From contig JAJRRU010000014.1 in assembly GCA_024279135.1 (NCBI GenBank), positions 23,351-87,350 of the forward strand: a stretch of 64,000 nucleotides of DNA. The letters are read 5' to 3'. The notes under the pieces are model-generated. The model was not told where the DNA came from. It worked only from the letters and a program-made list of their open reading frames with translations, and did no database searches. Shown here one piece after another: positions 40,201 through 59,114 of this stretch. Made by a program: the position numbers and the translations under genes. Position 1 is the first letter of the stretch; each line of letters starts with the position of its first letter. This stretch comes from Alphaproteobacteria bacterium. Lineage in GTDB: Bacteria > Pseudomonadota > Alphaproteobacteria > Rhodospirillales > Casp-alpha2.

Positions 40201-40322
40201 ATAATGCCGCAAATTACGGTGTTAAAACCCTGAATTCATTCCGCAAATACCACATCGACCTGTTTGGCGGACGTTCCGAAATAAAGGAGAGTACGCCGTG
40301 GCGTGGCGAACCGTCATCATAA
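37251..40322 (+). CDS. cas9: type II-C CRISPR-associated endonuclease Cas9 (1023 aa)
   Basis: RuvC-I is MRVIGLDVGINSVGFS. The Arg-rich bridge helix is LPRREARGTRRRLARKARK. The HNH motif is DTQIDHILPYSRSYDDSWSNKVLCFSRENQAKGN. RuvC-III is HHGVDALVIA. cas1 and cas2 follow with no csn2 or cas4. Confidence 0.97.
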   Translation: MRVIGLDVGINSVGFSFINMDKSEILEMGSRLFEAAEHPKSGASLALPRREARGTRRRLARKARKVSRLRTLLKEHGLPAQKIVQLKKGDKSPWQLRKEGLERVLSDEEFARALIHFAKRPGFQTNRKSAPPNEETTFTKAGNDLYEAMSAGGAKTIGAWLADQPKQRNDPDSYGRTVIRDHLRAEIKTLFTTQRSFGNQKATERLCDDVIKFAFYRRDLQSSLKLVGKCAVYGGEGEKRAPKRAFHAELFVALSRLTNLNIISYNGDKRPLGIEEIALLEQKALTTSKVTFAQARKTLNLHEDETFNLASYTFKPGEALTKEQVRERAEKLCLVEMKGFHTLRVALERISKMDWAALASRHDDLDQIAFALSFYESEDDIRSQLEPLNLSENKIIALLGATGFSQTINISLKAAKEIIPYLRQGETYMDAVLKIRPNHQVRAGEQTLLPPLAESTRNPIVDRSLSQIRKVVNALIRKHGMPDYFHVETARDLGRNFKDRKSIESDNKKRQAYKEATRKHAAEIYGFEPNGDQLARFRLWKEQNMCCPYSGEEIKPHHLQNGTDTQIDHILPYSRSYDDSWSNKVLCFSRENQAKGNLTAWEYMERNNMTRELEAFARGLDYHRRKKLLTQNFDEEKEKDWKSRHLNDTRYVARALSAYLEENLKPNPNIKKLVRTRKGGLTSKLRHLWGLPEKDRENDHRHHGVDALVIACATDGMVQKVARWSRYQRGKRDDPGFYADTPWENFRKDALAKLDEMFVTRQPSRKTGGRLHKDTIMSLRFDDEGAWQAIKRVKVKDLKKSDLENLVDVEIIDGQPRGRNATLYKVLNDRLTAFDNKPDKAFAEPVFMPLKPEKTGPNGEPHGPEIRRVRVYDNTKAGFRLKNNGFADNAEMAWTEVYEKDGKFYLLPVYTWQVKTKKWPRGLIYQGRTEESWPNVDDGYAFLFSLFKNDFVVLKNSKSVITEGYFKGTHRALGQINIEQHKGDNAANYGVKTLNSFRKYHIDLFGGRSEIKESTPWRGEPSS

Positions 40323-41188
40323 GCTCGGAATGCCGGGTTTCGTTAAAGCGCAGCCAGTTAGTGGTTGAGCGGGAAGACGACACACTGAGTGTTCCGGTCG
40401 AGGATATTGCTGTTTGCGTACTCGAACACAGGGGCATTACCGTTTCAACGGCCCTGCTTTCATCCCTGTGCGAGGCAGGAGCCGCCATTGCCGTTTGTAA
40501 CAACCGCCACTTGCCCAACGGCTTGATGCTGCCGCTCCTCACCCATTCGCGGCAAAGTCAGATTGCGGCGTTACAGGCTGGATGGTCTACTCCATTCAAA
40601 AAAAGGGCATGGCAAAACATCGTTCGTGCAAAAATAATCAACCAGGCCCACTGCTTGGCCCGCCGCGATCCGGAAAAAGGCAAGACCATACGCGAAATGG
40701 CAAAACGGGTTGATTCCGGGGATTTAAAAAACCGGGAAGCCCACGCCGCCCGAACCTACTGGCCCGCCCTGATGGGCAAGGGCTTCATTCGCGGGGCCGG
40801 AGACCTGCCCAACAGTTTTTTAAATTACGGATACACGGTTGTGCGCGCCTGTGTCGCCCGCTCGCTAGTCGGGGCCGGATTGCTGCCCTGCTTTGGGCTT
40901 CATCACGATAACAACCTGAACGGATTTAACCTTGCCGATGATTTAATCGAACCGTTTCGCCCCTTTGTTGATGACGCCATCATTGGCTTGGCCGCTCACC
41001 GCGACAAGAAAGACGACCTTAACAAGGAGGATCGCGCCGCCCTCGCCCAGCTCCCGGCCACTCAGGTTCTGATTGAGGGCGAACTGCAAACCATACTGAA
41101 TGCCACGCAAATTTCGGCTGAAAGCCTGGTACGTGCCATACGGAACAAAGACGCTTCGGCCTTGTGCCTACCGGAATTTTCCATGTAA
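40298..41188 (+). CDS. cas1: CRISPR-associated endonuclease Cas1 (type II)
   Basis: GTG 40298 follows AAGGAGA. 296 aa with the NYGYTVVRA and GLHH motifs. It overlaps the cas9 end. Confidence 0.95.
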   Translation: MAWRTVIISSECRVSLKRSQLVVEREDDTLSVPVEDIAVCVLEHRGITVSTALLSSLCEAGAAIAVCNNRHLPNGLMLPLLTHSRQSQIAALQAGWSTPFKKRAWQNIVRAKIINQAHCLARRDPEKGKTIREMAKRVDSGDLKNREAHAARTYWPALMGKGFIRGAGDLPNSFLNYGYTVVRACVARSLVGAGLLPCFGLHHDNNLNGFNLADDLIEPFRPFVDDAIIGLAAHRDKKDDLNKEDRAALAQLPATQVLIEGELQTILNATQISAESLVRAIRNKDASALCLPEFSM

Positions 41189-41208
41189 GCCATGAGGGAT
41201 GACTGAAA

Positions 41209-41550
41209 ATGAGCGTAAACGGAGATCGCTTCATGTGGATAATGGTATTTTTTGACCTGCCAGTTGGCACAAAGCCACAACGACGCGCTGCCACTCGTTT
41301 TCGCAATTATTTGCTCAAGGATGGTTATATTATGCTACAATTCTCCGTCTATGGGCGAATCTGTAACGGCCAGGAACGGGTTGATAAACATCTAAAGCGC
41401 CTACAGACTGTTTTGCCGTCAAATGGCAACATTCGCGCCCTGCAAGTCACCGATCAGCAATACGGACGTATGAAGATTCTTCTAGGAGAACGAGATGAAA
41501 ACGAAGAAAAAGATACAAAAAACAATGGCGGACAGCTCCTTTTACTCTGA
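41209..41550 (+). CDS. cas2: CRISPR-associated endoribonuclease Cas2
   Basis: 113 aa. MWIMVFFDLPVGTKPQRRAATRFRNYLLKDGYIMLQFSVYGR is Cas2-like. Confidence 0.9.
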   Translation: MSVNGDRFMWIMVFFDLPVGTKPQRRAATRFRNYLLKDGYIMLQFSVYGRICNGQERVDKHLKRLQTVLPSNGNIRALQVTDQQYGRMKILLGERDENEEKDTKNNGGQLLLL

Positions 41551-41596
41551 ACAATCCGCCATTTATTCTTTGTTTTCAACCGGCTAACAGGAGCGT

Positions 41597-43216
41597 ACCA
41601 TAACATAACGATGCAAAAAGGGAAGCTATGGCACCCACGATTTTATGAAACGGGTAATTTTTACCATAACATAACGATGCAAAAAGGGAAGCTATGGCGG
41701 CTAGTAGGGTTTCGCGCCTGTTCAAGCCACCATAACATAACGATGCAAAAAGGGAAGCTATGGCTGGCTTGCAATAACAGGACCAGGGCGATCCACCATA
41801 ACATAACGATGCAAAAAGGGAAGCTATGGCAGCTTTTGTACTCTTACGAGCCATAGTATTACCATAACATAACGATGCAAAAAGGGAAGCTATGGCGGCT
41901 GATTTGGTGTTCAATGCAGCAAACTAACCATAACATAACGATGCAAAAAGGGAAGCTATGGCCGTACTAATGGTGGTGAGAAGTTCCTAGGTACCATAAC
42001 ATAACGATGCAAAAAGGGAAGCTATGGCCTAATGTTCCATATCAAGTCTAATGCTAAGACCATAACATAACGATGCAAAAAGGGAAGCTATGGCTAAGTC
42101 TCTAAGAACTGATTTGATTAATCAACCATAACATAACGATGCAAAAAGGGAAGCTATGGCTATCATTAGACTGCCTAAATTTTAATAGAGACCATAACAT
42201 AACGATGCAAAAAGGGAAGCTATGGCTACCTTTTCATGTTTAGCATTGACCATCTGACCATAACATAACGATGCAAAAAGGGAAGCTATGGCTCCTACAG
42301 GAGAGCATGACTGGTCTGAAAAACCATAACATAACGATGCAAAAAGGGAAGCTATGGCTATTCCTCTCTTGGCCCCCCCCAAGAAGAGACCATAACATAA
42401 CGATGCAAAAAGGGAAGCTATGGCTCCATTGCGGCATGCCATTCACGGCTCAATACCATAACATAACGATGCAAAAAGGGAAGCTATGGCCGGTCTTACG
42501 TAATACCAGCGCCGCAATCAACCATAACATAACGATGCAAAAAGGGAAGCTATGGCTCTTCACATGATGCAGTCGCTCATAATTGGACCATAACATAACG
42601 ATGCAAAAAGGGAAGCTATGGCCGATGGTAAAACGTATGCCCAGATTACCGAACCATAACATAACGATGCAAAAAGGGAAGCTATGGCGGTTGGCACTCA
42701 GCTGGCCTTGAGCGAAGAACCATAACATAACGATGCAAAAAGGGAAGCTATGGCCTGCGCAAAGCGTTTACGGTAGTTATTAAAACCATAACATAACGAT
42801 GCAAAAAGGGAAGCTATGGCTTATAAGCCAGAATATGCAATACAGGATTTACCATAACATAACGATGCAAAAAGGGAAGCTATGGCCATTGATTGTTGAT
42901 TTCAATGAAGTTGGCGACCATAACATAACGATGCAAAAAGGGAAGCTATGGCTCCAAAGCTATAATGGATTAAAGGCTGTTAACCATAACATAACGATGC
43001 AAAAAGGGAAGCTATGGCTTCAGAAACATAAGACGGTTTGCCAAAGCGACCATAACATAACGATGCAAAAAGGGAAGCTATGGCCAACGCCCTTGCTGGC
43101 ATTATTGGCAGCATACCATAACATAACGATGCAAAAAGGGAAGCTATGGCTGCCTGCTAGATGTTCAAAAATGTTTCGTTACCATAACATAACGATGCAA
43201 AAAGGGAAGCTATGGC
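41597..43216 (-). CRISPR. CRISPR array: 25 identical 36-bp repeats, 24 spacers of exactly 30 bp
   Basis: The plus-strand repeat is ACCATAACATAACGATGCAAAAAGGGAAGCTATGGC, at 41597+66k for k=0..24; all were checked by eye. The minus-sense form is GCCATAGCTTCCCTTTTTGCATCGTTATGTTATGGT. It resembles type II-C (Neisseria-like) repeats and is complementary to the predicted tracrRNA, so the crRNA is read from the minus strand. Confidence 0.97.
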
Positions 43217-43259
43217 TAATTCTTTGATTGCTAACTTTCGTTAGCAATCAAAGAATTAG
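43217..43259. terminator. perfect 19-bp-stem hairpin abutting the last CRISPR repeat
   Basis: taattctttgattgctaac-tttc-gttagcaatcaaagaatta starts at the first base after repeat 25. Confidence 0.5.
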
Positions 43260-43630: not shown

Positions 43631-45112
43631 ATGATTAAAGCAGCCGCACTAGCCCAAGCCGATTATCTGACAGCCAAGCCCGAAGTGGTACGTAAAGAGC
43701 TTGGGCAATATTTCACTGGTAGCTCTATAGCCGACTATATGGCTTCAATGCTGGAACCAGTAAGCGCACCTACGGTGCGTATTCTTGATGCTGGTGCAGG
43801 GGCTGGTATCCTGACCATTGCAGCCGCAATGCGATATTTGGCCTTAGGCAATAACTGCGTTCACGCTGTGTTGTATGAAATCGATCAGGACACCCTATCG
43901 CATTTAGAACTCAATATGCGTCGTGTAGCCAAAGCGTTCAAGGAACAAGGTGGATCATTTACCTTTGAAATTCGCCACGAAGATTTCGTATTGGCAAGGC
44001 CGGATCGTAAAGAAGAACGCTTCCATGCGTCTTCGATAAATCCGCCATACTTCAAATATAGTTCCAAAACGTCACCTTATGCCAGTGCAACGCCAGACCT
44101 CTACAAGGGAAACCCGAATATTTACGCATCTTTCATGGCTGTCGTAGCAGCCTGCATGACTGATGATGGGCAAATGATTGTCATTGTTCCCCGAAGTTTC
44201 ACCAATGGCCTATATTTCAAAGGATTTAGAAGATACCTTAATCGCGCTATGAGCCTTGAAAAAATCCATATTTTCAGAGCACGCAACCAAGTGTTCCGGG
44301 AATCAGCCGTGTTGCAAGAAAATATCATTTGCAGCTATCGTAAGGCGCAACAGGGAACTTCTATTAGTATTTCCACCTCAACAGGGCACCATGACCTAAG
44401 CCAAACTGAAACCAATCACTACCCCGCTAGGCAACTGATAGACACAACAAACGCCCATGAAATAATTCGTATTCCGGAAACAGTTGAAGATGCCAAGATA
44501 TTAGCAGGTGTCGAGCATTGGCCTTCAAGTTTTCAAGACAACGGTTACTTCATCTCAACTGGCCCGGTGGTGGAACATCGCACACGGGAATTTATCACTG
44601 CCCCTGACAACATAAAAAACAGCATTCCATTGCTAAGAATGCACAATATCAAAACACTTAAAACAGAGTGGACTGGAACCAACAAAAAGGATGCCCGCTT
44701 CCTTTTGCTCAATTGCCATGAGAAGCACACATCAAACAATTTACCCTATGTCATCTTGAAACGTTTCAGCTCAAAAGATGAGAAGCGCCGTTTAGTCGCT
44801 GGAGTGCATAACCCTGAGGTAATTAAAGGCGAAATCATCGCCTTGGAGAATCATTTAAATTACATTGGGCACAATGATGGCCCTCTTAAGCAAGATGAAA
44901 TTTACGGATTGGCATTATTATTCAACTCAACACTGATAGATAAATATTTCCGATGTATATCAGGGAACACCCAGGTAAATGCAACTGAAATACGGCTCCT
45001 GAAGTTACCTGCCCGTGACACAATCAGGAAAATAGGTAAAACCTACAAATCAAATAGCTCTTTTCCACAAGAGCAAATAGATATGATTATTGAACGATTT
45101 TTAGAAATTTAA
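43631..45112 (+). CDS. N6-adenine DNA methyltransferase (gamma-class, PstI/BsuBI-system type)
   Basis: 493 aa with SAM motif [13 protein letters not shown] and catalytic motif [12 protein letters not shown]. The cognate endonuclease gene lies directly upstream of its partner position, immediately after this gene. Confidence 0.85.
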
Positions 45113-45126
45113 AGGCCCCACAAATA

Positions 45127-46098
45127 ATGAGTCAAAGAGAAGAAAAACTGCTGCAGGCACAAGAATTATTAAAAGCACTTGGCTTGCCAAAATCGCAATA
45201 TAACAACCGCTCGGCGTGGGTATTTCTCGCCTTATCGAATATTAAACCGGATGATAGTTGGAACAACGCACAAGCTCCATTACTTCCAACTGTAGAAATA
45301 ATGCAGTTCATACGCGAACACTACGGACAGGATTACAAACCAAATTCCAGAGAGACAATTCGCCGTCAAACACTTCATCAATTTGAGCAGGCCCGCATTG
45401 TTGACCGCAACCGGGACGACCCTTCGAGGGCCACCAACAGCAAGGATAATAATTACTCGCTGAACTCACCTATCATTGAAGTGCTAAAGACTTTCCCTGG
45501 CGGCAACTGGAAACAAAGAATTGAACGGTACAAAGCCGATCTGCAAAGCCTTCAAGAGCTTTACCAGCGCAGTTTAGAAATGCATAAAATCCCCGTAAAA
45601 TTACCCAGTGGGCAAGAAGTTAAACTATCGCCCGGTAAACATAATCAGCTACATGCTGATATTATTCATGAGTTTTGCCCTCGCTTTATTGGTGAAGGTG
45701 GAATCGTGCTTTACATCGGTGATACCGCAAGTAGCCGCAAAGAGGGCGGCAAACTAATGGTGCTGGAAACGGAAGTTCTGGAAGAACTGGGCGTTCCTCC
45801 GATGTCACATGATAAATTACCTGACGTAGTCGTTTATGATAAAAAGCGGGAATGGTTATTTCTTATCGAGGCTGTGACCAGTCACGGCCCGGTATCACCC
45901 AAACGTTGGATTGAACTGGAAGATGCACTAAAAACATGCAAAGTAGGCAGAGTCTATGTTACCGCCTTTCCTGACAGAGCAGAATTTCGTAGAAACGCTG
46001 CTGATATTGCTTGGGAAACGGAGGTCTGGATTGCTGACAATCCAGACCATATGATCCATTTCAATGGTGATCGCTTCTTAGGGCCACACAAAAGATAA
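45127..46098 (+). CDS. BsuBI/PstI-family type II restriction endonuclease
   Basis: 323 aa. The N-terminus (..[60 protein letters not shown]) and C-terminal catalytic part (..[26 protein letters not shown]..) match my memory of this family. Confidence 0.8.
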
Positions 46099-46119
46099 CC
46101 CCAGAAATATTCTGGCCCT

Positions 46120-47592
46120 TCACCCCTCCAACGCCACCGTTCGCGCCCAACAGGCCATAGACAGCCCGGCGGCTTCGGCTGACTCTACGTATTGCTGATG
46201 TTGCTCGCTGGGTATGGACAAATTCACCTTTACGGCTCTCAATCCCCATTTTGACGGGGTTGGCAATATGGGCGGCGGGGTTTCCAGCCTTTTTGCCAGC
46301 CACATGGGAATGCTCAAGCCTTCGGCATCGGCTTTGCTCTTGGCGATGGCTTCCTCGTCTTCGTTAAGCCGGAAGGAAAACACCGCCTTTTTGACTGTCG
46401 GTGGCCCTGGCTTCCTCACCCTTTCCAGCATCACCCCAATTTCCGGCGATAAACCGCCAAGCAAGCCTTGCAGAGTTTGCCCGATCCGCTCGGCGGCTTC
46501 TTCTGTCTGTTTATCGGTCACATGGGTATAGCGCAGGGTCATGGAGGTTTTCTTGTGGCCTAACAATTTGGAAACCATCGGCAACGGTACACCGCGCAAC
46601 ACTGCATGGCTGGCGAAGGTGTGGCGCAGGTCGTGGACTCGCACGTCTGGCACTCCGGCCCTTTGGCGAACGAGCACCCAGAACAGCCCCACTTCCGGGC
46701 GTGCCCTTTTGGTATCGCGGTAGAATGGGAACACAAAGGGGCTTTTGCCTCTTGGTTGCTTGCTCAACAGCTTCACCGCTTCCTTGCACAGGTAAACGTC
46801 ACGAGGCCCGGTTTTGGTGTCTGCCAACTTGATAACATCGCCTTTGACCGTTGACCATTTGAGACTGCAAATCTCCTGATGGCGGCACCCGGTAAGCAGT
46901 AGCATTCGTATAATATCGGCACCCTGTTTGTCTTCCGGCCTTTCGAGTTCAATCTGGCCCAATATCCGCGATACCGTGTTGATTTCCTCGGATGACAGAA
47001 ACCGGTTAAGCGTTTTCTTCGGGTTCTTCTTGATGCCCTGCACCGGGTTCTCGATCAGGTGTCCGCACACAATGGCGAACTCCATCATGGAATAGAGCAT
47101 TTCCAGAACACGGTTGGCCCCGCCGGGGAACTCATTGCTGTATTCTTCGAACCATCGGGCCACCAGCGCCCGGTCAATCTCGTCCAGATACAGCTTGCCG
47201 AAGTTTGGCATTAACCGCGCATTGATATAGCAGCGGGTCGATCTTTGCCCCGATGGTTTGAACTGGCTGAACTTCTGCTCCCACCAGATACCGTTGATAA
47301 AATCGGCAAACAGCGGTGTTGCTGAATTGCTGACTCCTGAACCCTCCGGCGTGTCGCCCTGTGCGATTTTCTCAAGGCATAGTTTCCGGGCTTGCACTTC
47401 ATCAATCACCGGAAACTTACCAAGGGTAATCCTGCGCGATTGCTTTTCCACCTGCTTATGCAGAACAAAGGATTTATAGCCGGACGGTTTGACGCGAAGC
47501 CCAAAGCCGGAAAGCTGGCTATCCCAAACGGTGTATTCTTTATCGGTTGGGGCAAGGCGTTTAATGCGCTGGCTTGAAAGTTTGGTTTTCAT
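46120..47592 (-). CDS. P4-type tyrosine integrase with a ~112-aa C-terminal extension containing two RHH-like modules
   Basis: The DUF4102-like arm domain is TVWDSQLSGFGLRVKPSGYKSFV. The catalytic motifs are HDLRHTFAS and LLGHKKTSMTLRYTH. The extra tail contains AVFSFRLNEDEEAIAKSKADAEGLSIPMWLAKRL and AVKVNLSIPSEQHQQYVESAEAAGLSMACWARTVAL. Confidence 0.9.
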   Translation of the reverse strand: MKTKLSSQRIKRLAPTDKEYTVWDSQLSGFGLRVKPSGYKSFVLHKQVEKQSRRITLGKFPVIDEVQARKLCLEKIAQGDTPEGSGVSNSATPLFADFINGIWWEQKFSQFKPSGQRSTRCYINARLMPNFGKLYLDEIDRALVARWFEEYSNEFPGGANRVLEMLYSMMEFAIVCGHLIENPVQGIKKNPKKTLNRFLSSEEINTVSRILGQIELERPEDKQGADIIRMLLLTGCRHQEICSLKWSTVKGDVIKLADTKTGPRDVYLCKEAVKLLSKQPRGKSPFVFPFYRDTKRARPEVGLFWVLVRQRAGVPDVRVHDLRHTFASHAVLRGVPLPMVSKLLGHKKTSMTLRYTHVTDKQTEEAAERIGQTLQGLLGGLSPEIGVMLERVRKPGPPTVKKAVFSFRLNEDEEAIAKSKADAEGLSIPMWLAKRLETPPPILPTPSKWGLRAVKVNLSIPSEQHQQYVESAEAAGLSMACWARTVALEG

Positions 47593-48734
47593 TATTTCAA
47601 CTCCCCGGCAATAGCGGAGGCCACGTCTCGGGCTGTCTCGCGAACATGCCCGTTAGCAAGGTGCGCGTATTTAAGAGTGGTTTCCGGGTCAACATGTCCC
47701 AGCAACCGCCCGATGGTCAGAATATGCTCACCATGTTCAAGGGCAATGCTGGCATAAGTATGGCGAAGGTCATGCATCCGCACCCCTTCCAGCCCTGCCC
47801 GTTTGCGGATCGCGCTCCAATGAACGATATGGTTACAAGCACCGCGACAGTTGTTCACGGTGCTGGCTGTCGATCTGGCGGGAAGCACATACGGGGATGA
47901 CGTGCGCGGGATGGCATCGAGCACGGCACAGGCTGCGGTGGACAGGTAGACCGTTTTTGCCCCGGTCTTGCTATCGGGCAGATACAACTTGCCGTGCTTG
48001 TAGTCCGTCCATTTCAGATTAATGATTTCACTTTTCCGGCATCCCGTTAAAATCAGCAGGTGGAAGAAAGCAACGCACACCGGAGAAATTGTTTTGTACT
48101 CCTGCAAAACCTGCCCAAGCCTTGCCAGTTCGACGGCTGACAGGAAACGCTCCGAGGGTGCCATTTTATAACGGGGAATGCCCTTGCATGGGTTGGTGTT
48201 GTCCGGGCGGTATCCGTATAGCTCGGCCTGTTGCATCATCACCGACAAAACAGGCAAGGCCCGGTTGGCTGGCCCCGCCCTGTTGCCCAAGGACGCGAAC
48301 CAGCGTTTAATCAGGTTCTTGTCGATTATGGCAATCTGCATTCCTTTGAAAAAAGGCAAAATATCACGCTCATAAGCGTTGCGACTGGCGAGAATAGTTG
48401 ACGATTTCCAGTTGCGTTTATAGCGCTCAAAAAACATCGCGCCCACGTCTTCAAACAAGGCAATTTCAAGTTGCTTTTTTCCCGCTACGGCCTTGCCTTC
48501 GGCGGTACAGGCCAAAGCCAGTTCGCGGGCTTTGGCTTCGCCCAACTCGGCGGTGGTGCCAAGACTTTCTTGCTTGCGCCTTCCCCTGTTCTGGGTCTGG
48601 ACAAAAAACAATTTACGCCCAGTCGGATAAACTCGCACCCCGTAACCGGGTATGATAGTATCGCGGATAACGTAATCTTTTTGGCGCAATTTGAGAGATT
48701 CAACGAATTTCTGTGTCAGCTTTTTCTTTTCCAT
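47592..48734 (-). CDS. P4-type tyrosine integrase
   Basis: The ORF is open to 48812 and I prefer ATG 48734 after GGAG. The arm domain is VIRDTIIPGYGVRVYPTGRKLFF. The catalytic motifs are HDLRHTYAS and LLGHVDPETTLKYAH. Its stop shares one base with the downstream integrase start. Confidence 0.9.
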   Translation of the reverse strand: MEKKKLTQKFVESLKLRQKDYVIRDTIIPGYGVRVYPTGRKLFFVQTQNRGRRKQESLGTTAELGEAKARELALACTAEGKAVAGKKQLEIALFEDVGAMFFERYKRNWKSSTILASRNAYERDILPFFKGMQIAIIDKNLIKRWFASLGNRAGPANRALPVLSVMMQQAELYGYRPDNTNPCKGIPRYKMAPSERFLSAVELARLGQVLQEYKTISPVCVAFFHLLILTGCRKSEIINLKWTDYKHGKLYLPDSKTGAKTVYLSTAACAVLDAIPRTSSPYVLPARSTASTVNNCRGACNHIVHWSAIRKRAGLEGVRMHDLRHTYASIALEHGEHILTIGRLLGHVDPETTLKYAHLANGHVRETARDVASAIAGELK

Positions 48735-48865
48735 GATTTCAGTATCTCCATGAAACGGGTTCAAAAAACCGCTGCACTGGAGGAAAGGAAAAACCAAAGC
48801 CACCCGCTGCAACGGGCAACCCGAATAAAAAAACTGAATATTTTGAGCTACTTAGCTTCTCCCAC

Positions 48866-49472: not shown

Positions 49473-50399
49473 TTATGCGTATTTCTTTGTTGGGATGCCC
49501 ATGCCTCGGGCTTTGTCTACCAAATTCTCGGTGATGCCGGTTCCGGGGAATGCCAGCACACCGATGGGCAAAATCTCCAGCATTGAGTCGTTACGTTTGA
49601 ACCCGGCGCGGGATTTTCCGTATTTGTTCCAGTCCGGCTTGAACACCACTTGCGCGACCTTTCTGGCGGCGGCCCATTTGGCGGCAATCAGATCTGTGCC
49701 TTTCGGTGCACCTCCATGAACCAACGTCATGTCCGGGTGTTTCTTGTGAGCCTTGTCGAGGGCAGCGAATATCAGCTCGTACTCGTTGAAGTCCATGCCT
49801 CCGGCGACGACCACCGTGGGGCCTTCGGGTGCCATTGAGAGTGTCTTTTTGCGCTCGGTGGCGGCGAGGAAGTCTCGGCTGTCAACCACGGCGGCGGTCA
49901 TGTGTGATGTGCTGATGCGGGAGCCTCGGCTTGGCATCCACGGTTGTCCGGTCTGGGCCGAAAAAAGCTCGGCTGCGTGGTCGCGCATGGTTTCAAAATA
50001 TTCGCGGGCGTATGATGTGGCTTTGGCCCGGATTTCAAGTTTCTCCAGTTCCACCGATTTCACCTCGGTTCCGTCCTGTTCACGGATGGCGCGGCGGATA
50101 TCGAAGCTCAGTTGGTCGAAACCTTTGTCGAGGCGGTCGAGCTTGCGCTGGAAGACGTTGACTGTGTTCCACAGCACGTCGGTGGCCTCGCTCTCCAAGC
50201 ATGTATCTGTGAAGAGATGGGCCAGACTGTCAAACACGTTGTCGAGGGTTGCAAAGCTGTGATCTTGCTCGGGCAGGGGCCGGGGATCGACTTCATCTGC
50301 TGGGGGCATGGCACCGAAGAGCTGCATGCGGTTCATAATCTCGTGGGTGGCGCTCTGGCCTGTCAGGCTGTCGGTGATGTCGGGTGTTTCTGAATACAT
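49473..50399 (-). CDS. DUF2493 (SLOG-like) domain protein with a ~190-aa N-terminal extension
   Basis: 308 aa. The C-terminus TVVVAGGMDFNEYELIFAALDKAHKKHPDMTLVHGGAPKGTDLIAAKWAAARKVAQVVFKPDWNKYGKSRAGFKRND is DUF2493-like. Confidence 0.75.
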   Translation of the reverse strand: MYSETPDITDSLTGQSATHEIMNRMQLFGAMPPADEVDPRPLPEQDHSFATLDNVFDSLAHLFTDTCLESEATDVLWNTVNVFQRKLDRLDKGFDQLSFDIRRAIREQDGTEVKSVELEKLEIRAKATSYAREYFETMRDHAAELFSAQTGQPWMPSRGSRISTSHMTAAVVDSRDFLAATERKKTLSMAPEGPTVVVAGGMDFNEYELIFAALDKAHKKHPDMTLVHGGAPKGTDLIAAKWAAARKVAQVVFKPDWNKYGKSRAGFKRNDSMLEILPIGVLAFPGTGITENLVDKARGMGIPTKKYA

Positions 50400-50681
50400 T
50401 TGTTTAGCTCCTTCGTTGCGGCGAACGGTTGATCCCGCTCATGGGGCTACTTTGCGGATCGGATAGGGGCATTCATCACCCCACCCCCGCAGGGGGCTTG
50501 AGTGGGGCCGCAACGAAGTGGAGGACTGTCTGGGACAGCTTTTTTGCCTCGCGAGGAATGGGCGCTTGCGCCCAGGGGAAAAAAGGTGGTTCAGCCAGTT
50601 GATCTATGCCCCCCGATCCGCGATGCCCCACTCATGAGCGGAATCAAACGGTCGGTGCAACGAAGGAGCGGACGTGTTCAG

Positions 50682-51490
50682 ATGCCTGTCATTACCGATA
50701 GCCTGACCGGACTCGATGCCCATGAGGTTATGAACTGTTTGTAACTCGCCTTGCCCCTGTTGAAGTTGATCCCCGGCCCCTGCCCGAACCCACAGCCCTC
50801 AACCCGAACGTGCTTGGTGGTCTGGCCCGGCTCTTCACTGCTTGCTGGCGGGGCTGCTGGCTTGCTGTGGAACACGGTCAATGTCTTCCAGCCCACCGCC
50901 TGATAAGGGTTACGAGCATCTGAGCAATCCGCCGTGCCATCCGCGAACAGGACGGAATATGCAAAGATGGAACTGGAGAAACTGGAAATTCGGGCAACTC
51001 CACCAGCCTGCGGCTGTTTTGGAACCATGCGCGACCATGTAGCTTTCTGCCAAGGCCAGATCGGGCAACCGTGGATGCCGGGGCGGGGTTCCCCACATGC
51101 CACCATGATCGTTGCCTTGGTTGACAGCCGGGACTTAATCGCCGCCATGCAACCAGCCTCTGGCCACCCGAAGGTTTTACGGTGGTCGTCGCCGGGGGCA
51201 TTCTCAGTTCAACACCTGATATTCGCAGCCCTCGACTAGGCTCACCCTATACCCGGCCTATTGGCTTCATAGGCAACAACTAGGCACTGGCTATTGCCGC
51301 CATAGCCGCAGCCCGGTCGCGCAAGTGGTGCTCAAGCCGGAACGGTGTTCGATAAATCCAGTGCCGGGTTCAAACGTAACGACACGATGCAGATTACAAT
51401 GCCATCGGTGTGCTGGCATTCCCCGGAACCTGCACCACAATTTAAAAGGCAAAGCACGAGGCTTGGGCATCCCTGCAAAAAATTCACCCG
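50682..51490 (+). pseudogene. decayed inverted copy of the DUF2493 gene
   Basis: Frame-hopping matches to the intact copy include MPVITDSLTGLDAHEVMN (vs TPDITDSLTGQSATHEIMN), MELEKLEIRA..FGTMRDH..GQIGQPWMPGRGS (vs VELEKLEIRAKA..FETMRDH..AQTGQPWMPSRGS) and KARGLGIPAKN (vs KARGMGIPTKK). A matching terminator hairpin lies at about 51497-51530. Confidence 0.7.
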
Positions 51491-51731
51491 CAACAAGCCC
51501 TGTCGGTAATCTCCGGCAGGGATGTTTTTCGGCCCGGTCGCGTATCTGTCAATCCGCACTTGCCCGAGTTGAAAATCTATCACGATTTTATTGCACAACC
51601 CGCTTTACCTTCATCAAAGGACATTCATACAATCTGTATGCAGGAGGCTCTTATCTTTGCCTATAGCCGTAGGCGGACGAAGATACTCTTTCGGATGAGG
51701 TTTGTAGTGGCTTGAAGTTACAATAAATGCA

Positions 51732-52979
51732 TCAATCTGACACCTCAACCCATTTGCCATTCGGCACAATCTTCAACTGCGCACCGAATTCGGTGAATTG
51801 TTTGGGCTCTAACGTATGTATGGGAATTAGTGCCTTAGGCTTAATCGCTGAAACCAATCGCTTGAGGTCTACCGCAGAGGCATGTCCTGACGTATGGACT
51901 ATATCGAAAGCAACTTCGTTCTCACTACACCAATTGCGAAGGTCAACTTTTCCTCTCTCCAGATAACCTGGCCACATAGAGTAGATAACCTTGGCACCAA
52001 TAAGGCAGTTGGCCCTGCATAAATCCTCGGCCATTGATTGCCTGAATGACATTACTAGATTACCTGACCTTCGTTTAAGTTCGCTCGGATAAATTCGGCG
52101 ATTTTTGAATGGCTCGACAAGATCGAACGTACCATCCCTAACGATTTTCAACTTTGCTCGATGAGGAAGGTAAACCCTGAGTGCGCTAGTTGTCGGGTCG
52201 GGAAGTGTTTTCCTGCCGATAGCGCAAAGCATATGCGCAACATAGAGATCAACGACGAACGTTCGCCCGCTTTTTAATGTGGCTTTGTAAAAACTGATAA
52301 ACCGATCTATGTTTTGACCTGAAAACGCAGCAAGTACGATTCCTTGTGTTTTTTGCATCTGCTCAGACAAAACTTCCACAAGGTCCGCCTCGCGGAGCTC
52401 CGGTTCACTGATATTTCGCCCAAGTGTCGTGCCTTCTAACAGCATGGCATCGACCGAGACGGGTGGATCGTTCAACAAAGCCTCAAAGGCCCATTTCTTC
52501 CATCCATGCCCCCGGATATCGCCAGAATAAAACAACCGCTCGCCATTCGCCTCAATCAAAAATGAGTAAGCATCAAAAGCGGAATGATCTGCCAAATAAG
52601 GTGTTATGGAAAACGGGCCAATGCGAAACACTTTTCGTGCATGGTAGAAACAGACATTTGGAAACGCAGCACCAAATGGTCCAAAGGCCATTGCCGCTCG
52701 AAGGAGCTTGTCTGCTCCACGTCCGATATATATTGGTATTGCAGGGTGCGCGTACTCCGCAAGTCCGTAATGATCGGCATGAGGGTGGGAAATGATAATC
52801 CCCAACAGGTCTACGTTGCTCCCGTCTGTAAGGCCCGGAATTGAAGGTAAGGCTTTTTCGCCATGAAGATCACCCATAAGAGGGGCACCCAGATCAAGGA
52901 GAATAGATTTACCATCCGCCTGAAGCTCGATGCAGTTTCCGCCAATTTCCTCGGCTCCTCTATGAATTTTTACCCTCAT
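51732..52979 (-). CDS. beta-CASP-type metallo-beta-lactamase-fold nuclease
   Basis: 415 aa. The MBL motifs are LLDLG, SHPHADHYG, LADHS and YSGD. The beta-CASP-like motifs are LLEGTTLG (A), HTSGHA (B) and IPIHT (C). Confidence 0.75.
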   Translation of the reverse strand: MRVKIHRGAEEIGGNCIELQADGKSILLDLGAPLMGDLHGEKALPSIPGLTDGSNVDLLGIIISHPHADHYGLAEYAHPAIPIYIGRGADKLLRAAMAFGPFGAAFPNVCFYHARKVFRIGPFSITPYLADHSAFDAYSFLIEANGERLFYSGDIRGHGWKKWAFEALLNDPPVSVDAMLLEGTTLGRNISEPELREADLVEVLSEQMQKTQGIVLAAFSGQNIDRFISFYKATLKSGRTFVVDLYVAHMLCAIGRKTLPDPTTSALRVYLPHRAKLKIVRDGTFDLVEPFKNRRIYPSELKRRSGNLVMSFRQSMAEDLCRANCLIGAKVIYSMWPGYLERGKVDLRNWCSENEVAFDIVHTSGHASAVDLKRLVSAIKPKALIPIHTLEPKQFTEFGAQLKIVPNGKWVEVSD

Positions 52980-52986
52980 CGGTGCC

Positions 52987-53907
52987 TCAAATCCAAACTG
53001 GATGAAGATTGTTCATCGCTTCAATAAGCAATCGATTTGGACCGAATGCAACTTCTTTACCCTGCTGTTGCAAAACATCCTCACCACTTGAAAACGGCAA
53101 CTGAAAATCATCTGGGAACGAGAGAAATTCGAAATTCATCTTAAGACCGTCATCTCGATCAACGCAAAGTCGTTCCAGCCCGTCCCGAATACCAACGGCG
53201 AGGAAGCCCAAATCATAGGATGCATAAAACTTTATTGGGGCCAAGACTTGAAGGGTGACGCATTCTACCTGCAAAAGTTTTTTATCTTCGTATCCAAAGA
53301 TGCTCTTTTTGTCTCGACATAGGAGATAAGCAAGACCGTATTGAAGAATTTCAAATGCTGCGAATGCCGGTGTATCGCTTCCCCATTTCAATTCAACGAG
53401 ATCAACGTTCCGATCTTGGATACAAATCAAGTCAATAGCAGCCCGCTTGTCGGCTTTATCATCAACCATGCCAGAGGCAACCGGTATTTGGTTGTACCAA
53501 TTCCCAAGCTCCCCACTTTCACCTAGGATGGCAATGGCACGTTCGAGCACAACTTCGGGACTCTTGTTTTTTGAAGCAAGTGTTATTTGTCGTTTAATGC
53601 GCCAATTTTCTTGCGATGGAATTCGCCCTGACCAATTCAAAAACACTTGATTTAGTAGCCTTCCCACCAACCTTGGAACAACATCGTCGTCAATTGATTT
53701 AGGTGAAAGGTTTAAGCATGTTGATTTCTGCTTGAGGTGCTTGCCCGGCTCAAGTCCAAGGGCATTATGGATAAGATTTTCAGTGCCATTGAATATGCCT
53801 TTCGTAGTCATAACGTCTCGCTCATTTCCAAGTGTTATCGCTGTTAGGGTCAGAGATTGCAGCGTGATAAAAAATTCCCAACCAGAAGTCACATGTTGTA
53901 CTTTCAA
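52987..53907 (-). CDS. hypothetical protein with a PD-(D/E)xK-like nuclease motif
   Basis: 306-aa ORF with a TTG start and an alternative ATG at 53811. AAIDLICIQDRNVDLVELKWG fits hydrophobic-D ... ExK. It ends 7 nt upstream of the MBL gene start on the same strand. Confidence 0.5.
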   Translation of the reverse strand: MKVQHVTSGWEFFITLQSLTLTAITLGNERDVMTTKGIFNGTENLIHNALGLEPGKHLKQKSTCLNLSPKSIDDDVVPRLVGRLLNQVFLNWSGRIPSQENWRIKRQITLASKNKSPEVVLERAIAILGESGELGNWYNQIPVASGMVDDKADKRAAIDLICIQDRNVDLVELKWGSDTPAFAAFEILQYGLAYLLCRDKKSIFGYEDKKLLQVECVTLQVLAPIKFYASYDLGFLAVGIRDGLERLCVDRDDGLKMNFEFLSFPDDFQLPFSSGEDVLQQQGKEVAFGPNRLLIEAMNNLHPVWI

Positions 53908-54027
53908 CCATTACGTTAACGTAGATGACGGGCCAGATAAAGAACGGGTTATTATCAATGAATCTAGCGGATCAACTTTGCCCAATTAGTATGGGAATAT
54001 GCGAAAACTCCGCCAGTTTAAACGCCC

Positions 54028-54291
54028 CTATCCATTTGCCACTCGATGTAAAACATCGCCATGACAGGCCGCAGGAGCGCACCAGCATACCAAATCCTTA
54101 CCACGCAGTTCGCGCTTGATTACTGCCTGTAGTTCCGGGCGGCATCCGATGTATGCACTGAATTTCTCAACCACTTCTGCCCGTGATCCATCCCTGCCCA
54201 TTTGAAACGGATTACCCCATTTACCGGGCCGTCCGATATAAACCGCGTTTGCCGGGGCTGTGCCTGATCGTTTGTTATGTACGCATGTCAT
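54028..54291 (-). CDS. DUF4326 domain protein
   Basis: 87 aa. VYIGRPGKWGNPF..KDLVCWCAPAACHGDVL is the DUF4326 signature. Confidence 0.8.
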   Translation of the reverse strand: MTCVHNKRSGTAPANAVYIGRPGKWGNPFQMGRDGSRAEVVEKFSAYIGCRPELQAVIKRELRGKDLVCWCAPAACHGDVLHRVANG

Positions 54292-54311
54292 GTTTCTTCT
54301 CCTGCTATGTG

Positions 54312-54464
54312 TTCAATTACACCCAACATTTTTTCGCCTTTACCTCTGGGCGTTACGAAGCACCGCCTTGGCGTTTAGCCATAGGCGGTGGGAGAACTCC
54401 GGCATTGACGGGATGATGTGAATTGCCCTGCGCGGGGATGGGAGCGAAGCGATACCATCCAGCC
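54312..54464. repeat. conserved non-coding leader, copy A (upstream of the DUF4326 gene)
   Basis: Block 1 at 54312-54347 matches 55873-55908 at 28/36 positions. Block 2 at 54430-54464 matches 56034-56068 at 32/35. GTGAATTG is also shared (54418 and 56002). Confidence 0.7.
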
Positions 54465-54613
54465 CGTGCAAGGGCAGGGCAACGGACAGCCAGCGGCGTT
54501 TAGCCGTCTGACCTTGTCCAGAATGCCCGTGAGTGTTGGCACAGCCATAGACCGGGCCGGAGGTTCTGGCGTTCAGCCATGAACCAATCGGCCTAGGTCA
54601 TGGCGTGATGGGT

Positions 54614-56205: not shown

Positions 56206-57393
56206 ATGTCTAAACGCGTAACTACAGCAAATTTCATCCAACGTGCTCTCGAAGTGCACGGCAACCGGTACGACTACTCGAAAGTGTTGTATGTGGCCGC
56301 TAGAAGTAAGGTCACGATAATTTGTCCGGTACACGGTGAGTTCGAGCAGCAACCATCGAGTCATTGTACGGGGCGCGGTTGCCACAAGTGTGGCGGAAAT
56401 AAACCGCTGACGTTGGACAGATTTATCGAACGCGCTAACAAGAAACACAAAGGTCGTTATGACTACTCCCGTGTAGAGTTCCAAAACGTTGAGATTAAGG
56501 TGGAAATCATATGCCCGGATCACGGCTCGTTTCTTCAGCGACCAGCCTCACACCTAAAGGGGTTTGGATGTGATCGATGTGGCAGGGTCGAGACGGGCAA
56601 AAAGCTGGGCCATTCCCTTGAGCGTTTTGTGGAGGACGCACGGCGAGCGCATGGGGATCGATACGACTATTCGCAAGTCGAGTACATCAATGCGCTCAGT
56701 AACGTGACTATCATCTGTCCCGATCACGGTGCGTTTGGGCAGAAACCAGCCAACCACATACGGGATGTCGGGTGCCCGGTGTGTGGCACTGAAAGCGCGG
56801 CTGCGTTAAGGGTCAAGACGACCGAAAAATTTATACAGGAAGCGAGGGAGGTGCACGGCGACCGGTACGACTATTCAAAGGTCGAGTACGTGACATCTCA
56901 CATAAAAGTTGAAATAGCCTGTAGAGAGCACGGATCATTTTGGACATCCGCAGTTAACCACGTAAAAGGGAACAAGTCCGGTTGTCCCGACTGTGCCGAG
57001 TCGGGGTTTAATCCAAGTGAACCCGGCCTGCTGTACTACATTGCCGTGACAGCAGACGACGGCGACACGCTATACAAGATTGGCATCACGAACCACTCGG
57101 TACAAAGGCGTTTCCCCACCCCAGACCTCGCACGCATGAGAATTGTCAAGATATGGAGGTTTGTCGTAGGTCGTGTCGCGGCGGAGAGGGAAGCAGATAT
57201 TCTGAGCCAATTTGCCGGGAACCGGTATTACGGGCCTGACATTCTGGTGGGCGCTGGAAATACTGAACTATTCACCCGCGATGTATTGCGGCTGGACGGG
57301 CAAGATAGTGAAAATGGTCAGTCGGCGGTTGACGCGGACGCCCGGGTGCTTTCCCGTCCGATCCAGATCAACTTTGAATTCATCCAGAGGTGA
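56206..57393 (+). CDS. protein with 4 tandem zinc-ribbon modules plus a C-terminal GIY-YIG/T5orf172-like nuclease domain
   Basis: The module F(I/V)xxAxxxHGxRYDYSxVxYxxxxxKVxIxCPxHGxFxQxPxxHxxGxGCxxCG occurs four times (aa ~9-64, 72-124, 137-192, 207-264). It is followed by PGLLYYIAVTADDGDTLYKIGITNHSVQRRF...ELF. Confidence 0.65.
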   Translation: MSKRVTTANFIQRALEVHGNRYDYSKVLYVAARSKVTIICPVHGEFEQQPSSHCTGRGCHKCGGNKPLTLDRFIERANKKHKGRYDYSRVEFQNVEIKVEIICPDHGSFLQRPASHLKGFGCDRCGRVETGKKLGHSLERFVEDARRAHGDRYDYSQVEYINALSNVTIICPDHGAFGQKPANHIRDVGCPVCGTESAAALRVKTTEKFIQEAREVHGDRYDYSKVEYVTSHIKVEIACREHGSFWTSAVNHVKGNKSGCPDCAESGFNPSEPGLLYYIAVTADDGDTLYKIGITNHSVQRRFPTPDLARMRIVKIWRFVVGRVAAEREADILSQFAGNRYYGPDILVGAGNTELFTRDVLRLDGQDSENGQSAVDADARVLSRPIQINFEFIQR

Positions 57394-57809
57394 ACGATCA
57401 CGCGTTTGATTGGTGAACCCATGCGGTAGTCAATTTGTCTGCTCATGGCTATGAAGACCATTCACGGACAGGCGATTTTCACGCCCGGTGTACCCAGGAC
57501 TCCGGACCAGTTTCTAGGCCGTCCAGGACCAGCTAGTATGACCCGGTGCGGTCATTGGGTGAAGCAGCTTTAAAGCACTAATTAAGTATTGCGTCCCCGG
57601 AATTTCGGAATTGGTCGGTTAGATCAATTTGAAAATTGATTCTTCCTCAGATTTATTATATGGTCTTCTTGCTCTTGGTAAGAGCCTGCCGCCCGTCGCT
57701 GCAAAGCTGTAGACAGCATTACTTTTATACATCCTTACTTTTCAATGTTATTTTTAGCTTGAGAAGTGGTAGACGGGCGACGCTTACTATGCAGGCTAGG
57801 AGAATAACA

Positions 57810-59114
57810 ATGACAAGTAAAGATGTGCAACCATCATCTCTTAATGGCATTAAACGTTTAGCTAATCAGCTCAAAAAATCTAACGGTTATCAGCATCACG
57901 AAGCTCTAAATATTGCAGCTCGGGCTGCTTCTTTTGAGAATTTCAACCATGCAAGAAATCAACTTCAAAACCTGACAGTAAGCAATCAGCTTTACCTGAC
58001 AGCTTACTGGTATGACACCAAAAGCTATCAAAGTGGAAGGGAAACTATTAAAATTGAGTTATCAAAACCACTTACCAAGATTGCCTCTAAGTCAGAGCTA
58101 AAAGAAGCCAAAGGTTTAGGTTGGTTCAGGGTTGCTGCCGAAGATCACTTAGTGAGTGACAAGCTGTTTCATTCACAACCAGTAGCCAGAAGTTATGTTT
58201 GCATGGCGACTAGGGCTTTACGCTTTATGGAAGCAACGGGATTAAAACCTGCCAAACATACCAATGCGATCTATCCGAATGGAGATATAGCGAACAAAAT
58301 CCCAAAATGTGACCATACAACAGACTGGTATGTTCCCAAAACAGGGCAATTCATCATGATTGATGAGCCTTATAATCATATAGAAGAGAATGCAGAGCGT
58401 ACCGCATGGGCTAAAAAGCACAATTGGCATTTGAAAATGTCAATATGGCCCGGAATACATAACCCTTATCATTGCAATCTGTTTGTCGCGACGGATGCTT
58501 CAAAGAATTATGACTTTCAGAGGCTAATGTCTAAAATTGATGCCATACCTGCCCCTATAACACAGGATAAGTGGAACGGTGTTTCAGCGGAGGATCATGC
58601 CCCTTTCATAAGTCCTTTGGCTGCAACGCCACAGGATAATCAACGGGCAAAATCCAAAGGAACCATCTGGCGGTTTTCCAGCAAAAAAACAATACCTCTG
58701 CATTATCGTTCCTCAAATAACGAGCGACGCCCCAATGCTTCCATGCCTATTGCAACTCATCTGGAGATTGCTCGACTCATCAAAGCCCTCACACGTTCCT
58801 CTGCAAAGCCTTATGCAGTGAATTATCGCCTTGATGCTGTGCGCAGTAAACTTGAAGACTGGTTTTTTGCGGAACATAGTCGTGAAGAAACCGATAAGCA
58901 TGATCTTTTTTACTATGGAGAAATTTCTGATGACGACCCGTTTATAAAGAAAACCAGTTCAACCAAGGGCGTTATTCAGCAGCTCAACAAACTGAAAGAC
59001 ACTTTGAAAACATACTATATTGATTGTGAACCTTTGAGAAAAATGGTCAGCAAAACTGATACTGCAATTAAAATTACTACAAAGTTTGATTGCGCTGAGA
59101 TAGTAATTACCTGA
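57810..59114 (+). CDS. hypothetical protein (434 aa from ATG 57810), low GC
   Basis: An AGGAGA RBS lies 6 nt upstream of ATG 57810 and the ORF is open from 57636. No family was recognised. Confidence 0.45.
   Translation: MTSKDVQPSSLNGIKRLANQLKKSNGYQHHEALNIAARAASFENFNHARNQLQNLTVSNQLYLTAYWYDTKSYQSGRETIKIELSKPLTKIASKSELKEAKGLGWFRVAAEDHLVSDKLFHSQPVARSYVCMATRALRFMEATGLKPAKHTNAIYPNGDIANKIPKCDHTTDWYVPKTGQFIMIDEPYNHIEENAERTAWAKKHNWHLKMSIWPGIHNPYHCNLFVATDASKNYDFQRLMSKIDAIPAPITQDKWNGVSAEDHAPFISPLAATPQDNQRAKSKGTIWRFSSKKTIPLHYRSSNNERRPNASMPIATHLEIARLIKALTRSSAKPYAVNYRLDAVRSKLEDWFFAEHSREETDKHDLFYYGEISDDDPFIKKTSSTKGVIQQLNKLKDTLKTYYIDCEPLRKMVSKTDTAIKITTKFDCAEIVIT

Follow-up and report, generated by a model that had tools for sequence, protein, structure and literature searches.

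Nucleases of the metallo-beta-lactamase (MBL) fold can act as effectors of defence, as do a protease-activated double-stranded DNase (dsDNase) (PMC12642450) and Cas14 (PMC13069675). In the Avs2, Avs4 and Hachiman (HamMAB) systems the MBL DNase is the effector of a modular immune system and lies beside a variable partner (PMC12642450, PMC13069673). It is a zymogen, coupled to a STAND or helicase sensor and cut by a trypsin-, caspase- or subtilisin-like protease that is encoded next to it. Here we analyse a two-gene cassette on the minus strand of a 64,000-nucleotide (nt) stretch of an alphaproteobacterial contig (JAJRRU010000014.1, positions 23,351 to 87,350; hereafter the window, in which all coordinates are given). 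The cassette encodes a protein of 274 amino acids (aa) of PD-(D/E)xK type, denoted SM, and a 415-aa beta-CASP protein of the MBL fold, denoted MBL. We propose that the cassette, a nuclease module of two genes, was acquired horizontally, is carried as cargo by a conjugative element and most likely constitutes an undescribed innate defence system, a reading to which we give somewhat better than an even chance.

Like the Avs and Hachiman modules, the cassette places an MBL-fold nuclease beside a variable partner. It is unlike them in having neither a protease nor an NTPase, the partner being a nuclease-fold protein; the cassette consists of SM and MBL alone, and no protease was found among the clusters of MBL partners described below. 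Of the defence effectors returned by the literature searches, those with an MBL fold, the protease-activated DNases and Cas14, both differ from the cassette in partner and architecture. The identification of MBL with the Cas14 of type VII CRISPR was also considered and is ruled out, because MBL reaches 19.8 bits with NF045584, whose cut-off is 800, and because the CRISPR locus of the window is of type II. Another comparison can be made with R.BspD6I, with its large and small subunits, and with the type IV restriction enzymes, which, as the cassette does, combine a PD-(D/E)xK subunit with a second nuclease and have no cognate methyltransferase. The BspD6I subunits and BamHI are indeed among the structural neighbours of SM, yet weak ones (TM 0.2-0.3), and these systems differ from the cassette, where the second subunit is a beta-CASP metallo-nuclease and there is no recognisable specificity domain. 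To our knowledge, no described restriction system has a beta-CASP second subunit. When the defence models of PADLOC-DB v2.0.0 were searched at E <= 1, no family was found for SM, for MBL or for the partners of REase-ARP type that are introduced below, and literature searches returned no description of the SM-MBL pairing, which agrees with the original prediction, in which the pair was not recognised as a named defence system.

Both open reading frames (ORFs) of the cassette are intact and co-directional. The SM gene lies at 52987-53811 and the MBL gene, beginning with ATG, at 51732-52979, so that the two genes are, as predicted, 7 nt apart; the intergenic feature (52980-52988, from reading of the sequence) includes a Shine-Dalgarno-like motif, GAGG, at 52985-52988, over the SM stop codon. 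The short gap together with this motif implies that both genes belong to one operon and are translationally coupled. The spacing is similar in homologous loci, with either a 4-nt overlap or a gap of a few nt. The strings AAIDLICIQDRNVDLVELKWG in SM and HPHADH in MBL, on which attention had been drawn to the pair, occur in the translations. By contrast, the length of 306 aa that had been given for the upstream protein does not hold. That length is of the mechanical ORF, which begins with TTG and spans 52987-53907, while SM is 274 aa long from the ATG at 53811, because its public form (P0001; P-numbers denote database proteins and L-numbers homologous loci or contigs) has the same length, because every homologue starts there, and because the nucleotide homology to the nearest relative, L138 (73% identity), extends exactly between 53811 and 51745. 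The comparison with L138 thus delimits a conserved unit of exactly two genes, which begins at the SM ATG and ends where MBL ends. There is no conserved third gene, with a small ORF following the L138 MBL having no counterpart in the window and the downstream genes varying among loci. Nor was a non-coding RNA found by the Rfam scan of 51000-54600 at E <= 0.1, and promoter-like and terminator-like sites at the cassette are not above the shuffled expectation.

The MBL protein carries the complete set of residues expected of a beta-CASP nuclease. In Pfam it matches Lactamase_B_2 and Lactamase_B above their cut-offs and RMMBL with 27.9 bits (cut-off 21.6). Across 24 homologues, the metal ligands H65xH67xD69H70, H132 and D154 are invariant and D29 is nearly so, and the beta-CASP motifs A (E182), B (HTSGH at 362-366, with H362 and H366) and C (H388) are invariant as well, so that the predicted HxHxDH set and motifs A, B and C are all present. 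The best sequence match in the Protein Data Bank (PDB) is 2az4 (E 1.6e-17), which is EF2904 of Enterococcus faecalis, followed by RNase J and CPSF73. In the Foldseek search with the AlphaFold2 (AF2) model of MBL (pLDDT 90), 2az4 also comes first (E 1e-26, TM 0.75, 20% identity), with further matches to RNase J, CPSF73, IntS11 and TTHA0252 at TM of 0.63-0.73; 2az4, RNase J and CPSF73 are aligned over their whole length at TM of 0.65-0.75, and no SNM1 or Artemis entry is among the top 50 matches. EF2904, with which the SGHA region of motif B is conserved, is in the same length class (about 425 aa) and consists of an MBL domain and a beta-CASP domain alone, with no extra RNA-binding or dimerisation domain (PMC3095777). 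It differs from MBL in that only 20% of the residues are identical, and it is itself an uncharacterised protein.

With RNase J, MBL shares the beta-CASP fold (TM about 0.7), the metal ligands and the His residues at motifs B and C with an equal spacing of 22 residues. This raises the possibility that the cassette serves housekeeping or stress metabolism of nucleic acids, with MBL performing RNase J-like RNA processing or acting as an SNM1-like repair exonuclease and SM being an accessory endonuclease. The characterised structures nearest to MBL (RNase J, CPSF73, IntS11, TTHA0252), the RMMBL motif, the His at motif C and the annotation of homologues as 'ribonuclease J' by JGI would all be consistent with it. 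However, MBL reaches 63.2 bits with TIGR00649, whose cut-off is 400, and 41.6 bits with NF047419 (RNase J1), whose cut-off is 820; its identity to RNase J is 16-20%; and it ends at 415 aa, without the C-terminal domain of RNase J (about 550 aa), which being unmatched reduces the TM normalised to the RNase J targets to just 0.52-0.56. From the low scores, the low identity and the missing domain it follows that MBL is not an RNase J orthologue. Moreover, the cassette MBL differs from RNase J in being mobile cargo that is nearly always found beside a D...ExK protein. The distribution of the pair is rare and patchy over unrelated phyla, the pair sits in a low-GC insert that is absent from sister elements, the MBL gene is found as pseudogene remnants, and the partner families diverge fast, all of which speak against a housekeeping role. 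We therefore regard such a role as quite unlikely; a housekeeping RNase J, which would have spoken against the original prediction, MBL is not. The family numbers 2,886 homologues of MBL at E <= 1e-5.

The SM protein has no significant match in Pfam, NCBIfam, PADLOC, PHROG or the PDB sequences. Its sole Pfam match, to DUF5575_N (E 0.014), is under the cut-off of that family, and the PDB profile search with the SM alignment gave only chance matches to light-harvesting proteins. In the alignment of 23 homologues, E90, D127 and E140-L-K142 are invariant, and the motif NQxPVASG also stands out. In the AF2 model (pLDDT 93, pTM 0.92) the elements are a helix at 85-98 (with E90), strands at 105-110, 125-132 (with D127) and 135-141 (with E140, followed by K142), a helix at 148-167 and a strand at 184-191. 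The predicted topology, alpha-beta-beta-beta-alpha-beta, is that of the canonical PD-(D/E)xK core, with the Asp on strand 2, the ExK on strand 3 and the Glu on helix 1. The PDB list obtained with Foldseek consists almost wholly of PD-(D/E)xK nucleases, including bunyaviral cap-snatching endonucleases, BamHI, BspD6I, the R2 endonuclease, the nuclease domain of Can2, the RecB nuclease and McrC, with single scores that are weak. Based on the model and on this list, we accept the restriction-endonuclease-like fold that had been predicted for the D...ExK protein and take SM to represent a new, divergent family. This family is rare: clustering at 90% identity gives 143 clusters, and of the representative clusters of 1.84 billion proteins it accounts for 1,070.

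That the two genes belong together is seen in two censuses, one of 57 SM loci, one per species, and the other of 80 metagenomic MBL loci with 40-52% identity. MBL lies directly beside SM in 14 of the 57 species loci, in nine with the order SM>MBL (two of these being MBL remnants) and in five with the order MBL>SM. The pair is present in all the close relatives with enough contig, and the pairing is spread patchily over many bacterial phyla. In 15 pairs, the identities of SM and of MBL to the window proteins correlate with r = 0.92, which fits inheritance as a unit. The co-occurrence that was to be checked is thus observed, in both gene orders and with correlated divergence, and SM and MBL make up an operon-like unit whose genes move together. 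The module decays in some genomes: at L007 (10813-11035) and L013 (10843-11163) the intact SM gene is followed by remnants of MBL with 58-67% identity over 60-110 codons.

Seen from either side, the partners are exchangeable. In 24 of the 57 loci, and thus more often than with MBL, SM is partnered with a protein of about 250 aa of the REase-ARP family (PF22558), 19 times co-directionally, three times convergently and twice as a fusion. The database proteins also include SM-REase-ARP fusions and one DUF6946-SM fusion. DUF6946 (PF22187) is placed in Pfam clan CL0236 (PMC10584680). Since REase-ARP and DUF6946 occupy the same position beside, or fused to, SM homologues, they appear to be interchangeable with MBL as partners of SM, although their fold is unlike that of MBL and both are absent from the window. 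Clan CL0236 is, as we understand it, the PD-(D/E)xK clan. Conversely, a neighbour of the SM family is found in just about 8 of the 80 MBL loci, and nearly all of the 80 have some co-directional neighbour of 260-350 aa. By sequence these neighbours form a number of clusters, and every cluster has an hDh...hhExK motif of its own. By hhalign, SM is linked with cluster c4 (92%), c4 with c13 (81%) and with c3 (58%), and separately c1 with c5 (98%); no Pfam match was found for the representatives of five MBL-partner clusters. The D...ExK motif occurs in 44 of 88 adjacent co-directional ORFs compared with 10 of the 215 remaining genes at these loci, far more than chance would give (Fisher p = 5e-19), and a neighbour with this motif is present in 30 of the 44 MBL loci that have room on both sides. 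Furthermore, three MBL homologues (L075, L117 and L077) have a C-terminal extension of about 340 aa, which in L075 and L117 contains D...ELK by the motif test and in L077 shows LSVIELK, unscored by the regular expression. The general architecture is thus a beta-CASP nuclease together with a fast-diverging protein of PD-(D/E)xK type, with SM-MBL as one of its branches.

A small unit of two genes with coupled translation that is found on mobile elements and is often adjoined by integrases could also be an addiction module of toxin-antitoxin kind, in which one nuclease would be a toxin checked by the other and the mobile element would be stabilised. If this were true, it would be hard to account for the full sets of catalytic motifs in both proteins across all homologues, for the large size of both (274 and 415 aa), for the presence of MBL and a D...ExK-motif domain in one polypeptide at L075 and L117, for the fusions of SM with other nucleases, for the intact SM that outlasts the decay of MBL at L007 and L013, and for the occurrence of SM without either known partner. 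We consider this explanation very unlikely.

The surroundings of the cassette show that it is cargo. The GC content of the cassette is 0.463, compared with 0.573 for YspA, 0.562 for DUF4326-ssb and 0.56-0.58 for the flanking backbone genes, so that the lower GC that had been noted by eye is real; at the 17th percentile of equal-sized windows in this mosaic stretch it is not extreme, and since the other cargo blocks of the window are equally low, the dip marks cargo and nothing exceptional. In three metagenomic contigs that are relatives of the element (L144-L146), the backbone aligns with 54370-54027 and 51563-49553 at 84-89% nucleotide identity. The homology ends at the stop codon of the DUF4326 gene (54027) and resumes at 51563, and the slot between these two points (for example, L145 354-1687) is filled with a 128-aa ORF and an IS transposase of the rve family and not with SM-MBL. 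Because the relatives carry other cargo between the same backbone points, 51564-54026, a segment of 2,463 nt with GC of about 0.46 that carries SM and MBL, is a cargo segment in a variable slot, in agreement with the accessory slot that had been predicted. On the upstream side the slot is bordered by the DUF4326 gene (54028-54291, minus strand; Pfam DUF4326, E 9e-25), whose stop codon is one edge of the slot and whose protein is identical in L144-L146. On the downstream side lies a decayed copy of the YspA/DUF2493 gene (50633-51536, plus strand), the intact gene being at 49473-50399 on the minus strand. By blastn the two copies share 71% nucleotide identity over 1029 nt, with the second copy being broken by frameshifts, and by tblastn the decayed copy is recognised at 50679-51404 with 37% aa identity. 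The duplication that had been claimed therefore exists, with the qualification that the copy is inverted, and both copies are part of the backbone common to L144-L146. A direct repeat of 24 nt with 79% identity is found at 51740-51763 and 54022-54045, in each case over a 3' end, that of the MBL gene and that of the DUF4326 gene; being off the mapped cargo breakpoints, it is treated as a chance occurrence. By megablast, the cassette has no match among plasmids and Escherichia coli genomes, and the search with the 10-kb flanks gave just one match, of 80 nt, to Agrobacterium.

The element is conjugative, with F-type transfer genes encoding TraC, TraH, TraG, a TrwB coupling protein and a TrwC relaxase. 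After the transfer genes there follow in order a type II CRISPR-Cas locus, a PstI-like restriction-modification (R-M) pair, two tyrosine integrases, YspA/DUF2493 and the cassette, and beyond the cassette DUF4326, a 273-aa protein without a Pfam match, SSB, a Toprim protein and a helicase of Strawberry-notch (Sno) type. This arrangement brings in the possibility that the cassette serves anti-defence or establishment, being expressed early in the new host and destroying CRISPR RNAs (crRNAs), retron msDNA or signalling oligonucleotides, or processing the transferred strand. The ssb, DUF4326, YspA/SLOG, Toprim and Sno-helicase genes around the cassette, which are on the same strand, would be expected from this explanation, and a database protein, P0243 (505 aa), resembles a fusion of SM with YspA, weakly so, with E 6e-4 and under the Pfam cut-off. 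In P0243 the YspA/SLOG match is in the C-terminal stretch; YspA genes flank the cassette too, and the resemblance may be due to chance. It is noted, however, that about 17 kb, with CRISPR-Cas, R-M and integrases, separate the cassette from the end of the relaxase gene at 34146, so that a leading-region position of the cassette is not shown, and that the relatives L144-L146 of the same element are without the pair. Anti-defence genes, moreover, are usually small single genes. In tblastn searches SM was found in none of 72,556 plasmids and none of 50,697 phage records, and MBL in 11 of the plasmids, with at most 42% identity (two of them conjugative), and in none of the phages.

Most of the homologous pairs are chromosomal and lie not in conjugative leading regions but near integrases, Gabija, methyltransferases and WYL regulators. 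Among 106 neighbours in 13 SM-MBL loci the commonest are Arm-type integrase domains (five), followed by UvrD/GajB (three, two of them at E < 1e-229), type II methyltransferases (three), prophage terminase/DUF5681 (three) and GajA-like AAA_15/DUF2813 proteins (two). At the P0002 locus the neighbours include an integrase and a Dam-type methyltransferase; those at L140 are two WYL-WCX regulators, a large SF1 helicase and an AAA+ ATPase; and at L139 an integrase lies downstream of SM-MBL, with cyclase and E2-like genes upstream. The MBL homologue on a Rhizobium plasmid adjoins an Eco57I-type methylase and a GIY-YIG nuclease. Taking both sides together, the evidence leans to defence and we think it rather unlikely that the cassette serves anti-defence or establishment. 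As to the upstream genes of L139 (459-3905), they encode a cNMP-binding/guanylate-cyclase protein, a second cyclase-like protein and an E2-ntca/E2-Crich protein, and could represent a nucleotide-signalling conflict system of their own within that island.

The preferred reading, that the cassette is a two-nuclease defence module, draws on the pairing, the partner swaps and the neighbourhoods described above, including the R-M and CRISPR-Cas systems near the cassette, on the precedent of the MBL-fold defence effectors, and on the following points. MBL has its beta-CASP motifs intact, SM in its predicted fold has an intact E...D...ExK site, and a mobile, often decaying, modular unit in neighbourhoods rich in mobile and defence genes is the usual signature of an immune system. 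Based on this reading, SM and MBL would act as a complex. The fast-diverging SM would recognise and nick or cleave a nucleic-acid feature specific to the invader, which might be a base modification, an atypical end or an intermediate of replication, and the RNase J-like MBL would then load on the new 5' end and degrade the strand in the 5'->3' direction. In this family, the members that act on RNA are those with a His at motif C, which gives a lean, not a proof, on the substrate. Since motif C of MBL is His and its nearest folds are RNA enzymes, RNA or single-stranded DNA would be the likelier substrate of MBL. Within 51564-54026 there is no methyltransferase, the nearest one (43631-45112) belonging with its own PstI-like endonuclease, and because the unit has no methyltransferase the discrimination between self and non-self would be type-IV-like or based on structure.

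Several points weigh against this reading. The single Foldseek matches of SM are weak, with the best PDB match at E 0.016 and TM of 0.2-0.3, and so individually is the best match in BFVD, which is annotated 'PD-(D/E)XK endonuclease-like' (E 3e-4). Nineteen of the 57 SM loci have neither known partner, several of these being on truncated contigs. The null result with PADLOC would be obtained just as readily with a novel system as with a pair that has nothing to do with defence. Many of the neighbours in the 13 SM-MBL loci are ordinary metabolic genes, and the neighbourhood signal, given as plain counts, is no more than suggestive. On its own element the cassette has as neighbours ssb, DUF4326 and YspA, which are genes of establishment type rather than of defence. 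Finally, the division of labour between the two proteins and the substrate are what we infer and not what is observed. Nonetheless, all three alternative explanations are less well supported than defence, and the original prediction of an uncharacterised defence or anti-defence candidate is supported by the co-occurrence, the fold, the distinctness of MBL from RNase J and the slot, while the function is one that we infer. We rate the cassette as a putative innate defence of nuclease kind, built from unannotated families.

A wider and more tentative proposal, to which we give clearly less than an even chance, is that SM-MBL is a branch of a large undescribed class in which a fast-evolving PD-(D/E)xK 'recognition' nuclease would be combined with an interchangeable 'degradation' nuclease (beta-CASP, REase-ARP or DUF6946), either as neighbour or as fusion. 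If so, the beta-CASP branch would be the first stand-alone effector of RNase J type in bacterial innate immunity, acting possibly against RNA or single-stranded intermediates of transfer or replication and not against dsDNA.

The other features of the element can be described as follows. The complete type II CRISPR-Cas locus (37251-43230), 8.5 kb from the cassette, contains Cas9 (1023 aa; HNH_4, RuvC_III), Cas1 and a probable Cas2 (41209-41550), and its array has 25 repeats of 36 nt (ACCATAACATAACGATGCAAAAAGGGAAGCTATGGC) with spacers of 30 nt; the ORF at 42799-43227 is inside the array and is spurious. At 43631-48812 there are an Eco57I-like N6 methyltransferase and a restriction endonuclease of the BsuBI/PstI family, which form the PstI-like R-M system 5.6 kb from the cassette, and then, in tandem on the minus strand, two tyrosine integrases, of which one has a NikA-like C-terminal stretch. 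The CRISPR locus, the R-M system and the integrases make up a defence and cargo island, with the transfer genes on one side and the ssb region on the other. On the plus strand, a 395-aa protein of repeated DUF723/treble-clef zinc-ribbon units (56206-57393) and a 492-aa protein with a DUF5623 domain and low GC (0.41; 57636-59114) look like further cargo.

If the cassette is truly an immune system, it would represent a new effector logic, in which an endonuclease is combined with a 5'-3' beta-CASP exonuclease without methyltransferase, NTPase or protease. A function would then be given to the MBL family with its 2,886 homologues, including the orphan crystal structure of EF2904, and also to the roughly one thousand clusters of the unannotated PD-(D/E)xK family and to the MBL-partner families whose tested representatives have no Pfam match. 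The network of partner swaps, with SM found with MBL, REase-ARP or DUF6946 and MBL with at least five D...ExK families, is a natural experiment on the recombination of immune modules, and the presence of the cassette on an element that also carries Cas9 and R-M is relevant to the ways in which mobile elements arm themselves or their hosts. Should the cassette not serve defence, a conserved nuclease heteromer would still be defined.

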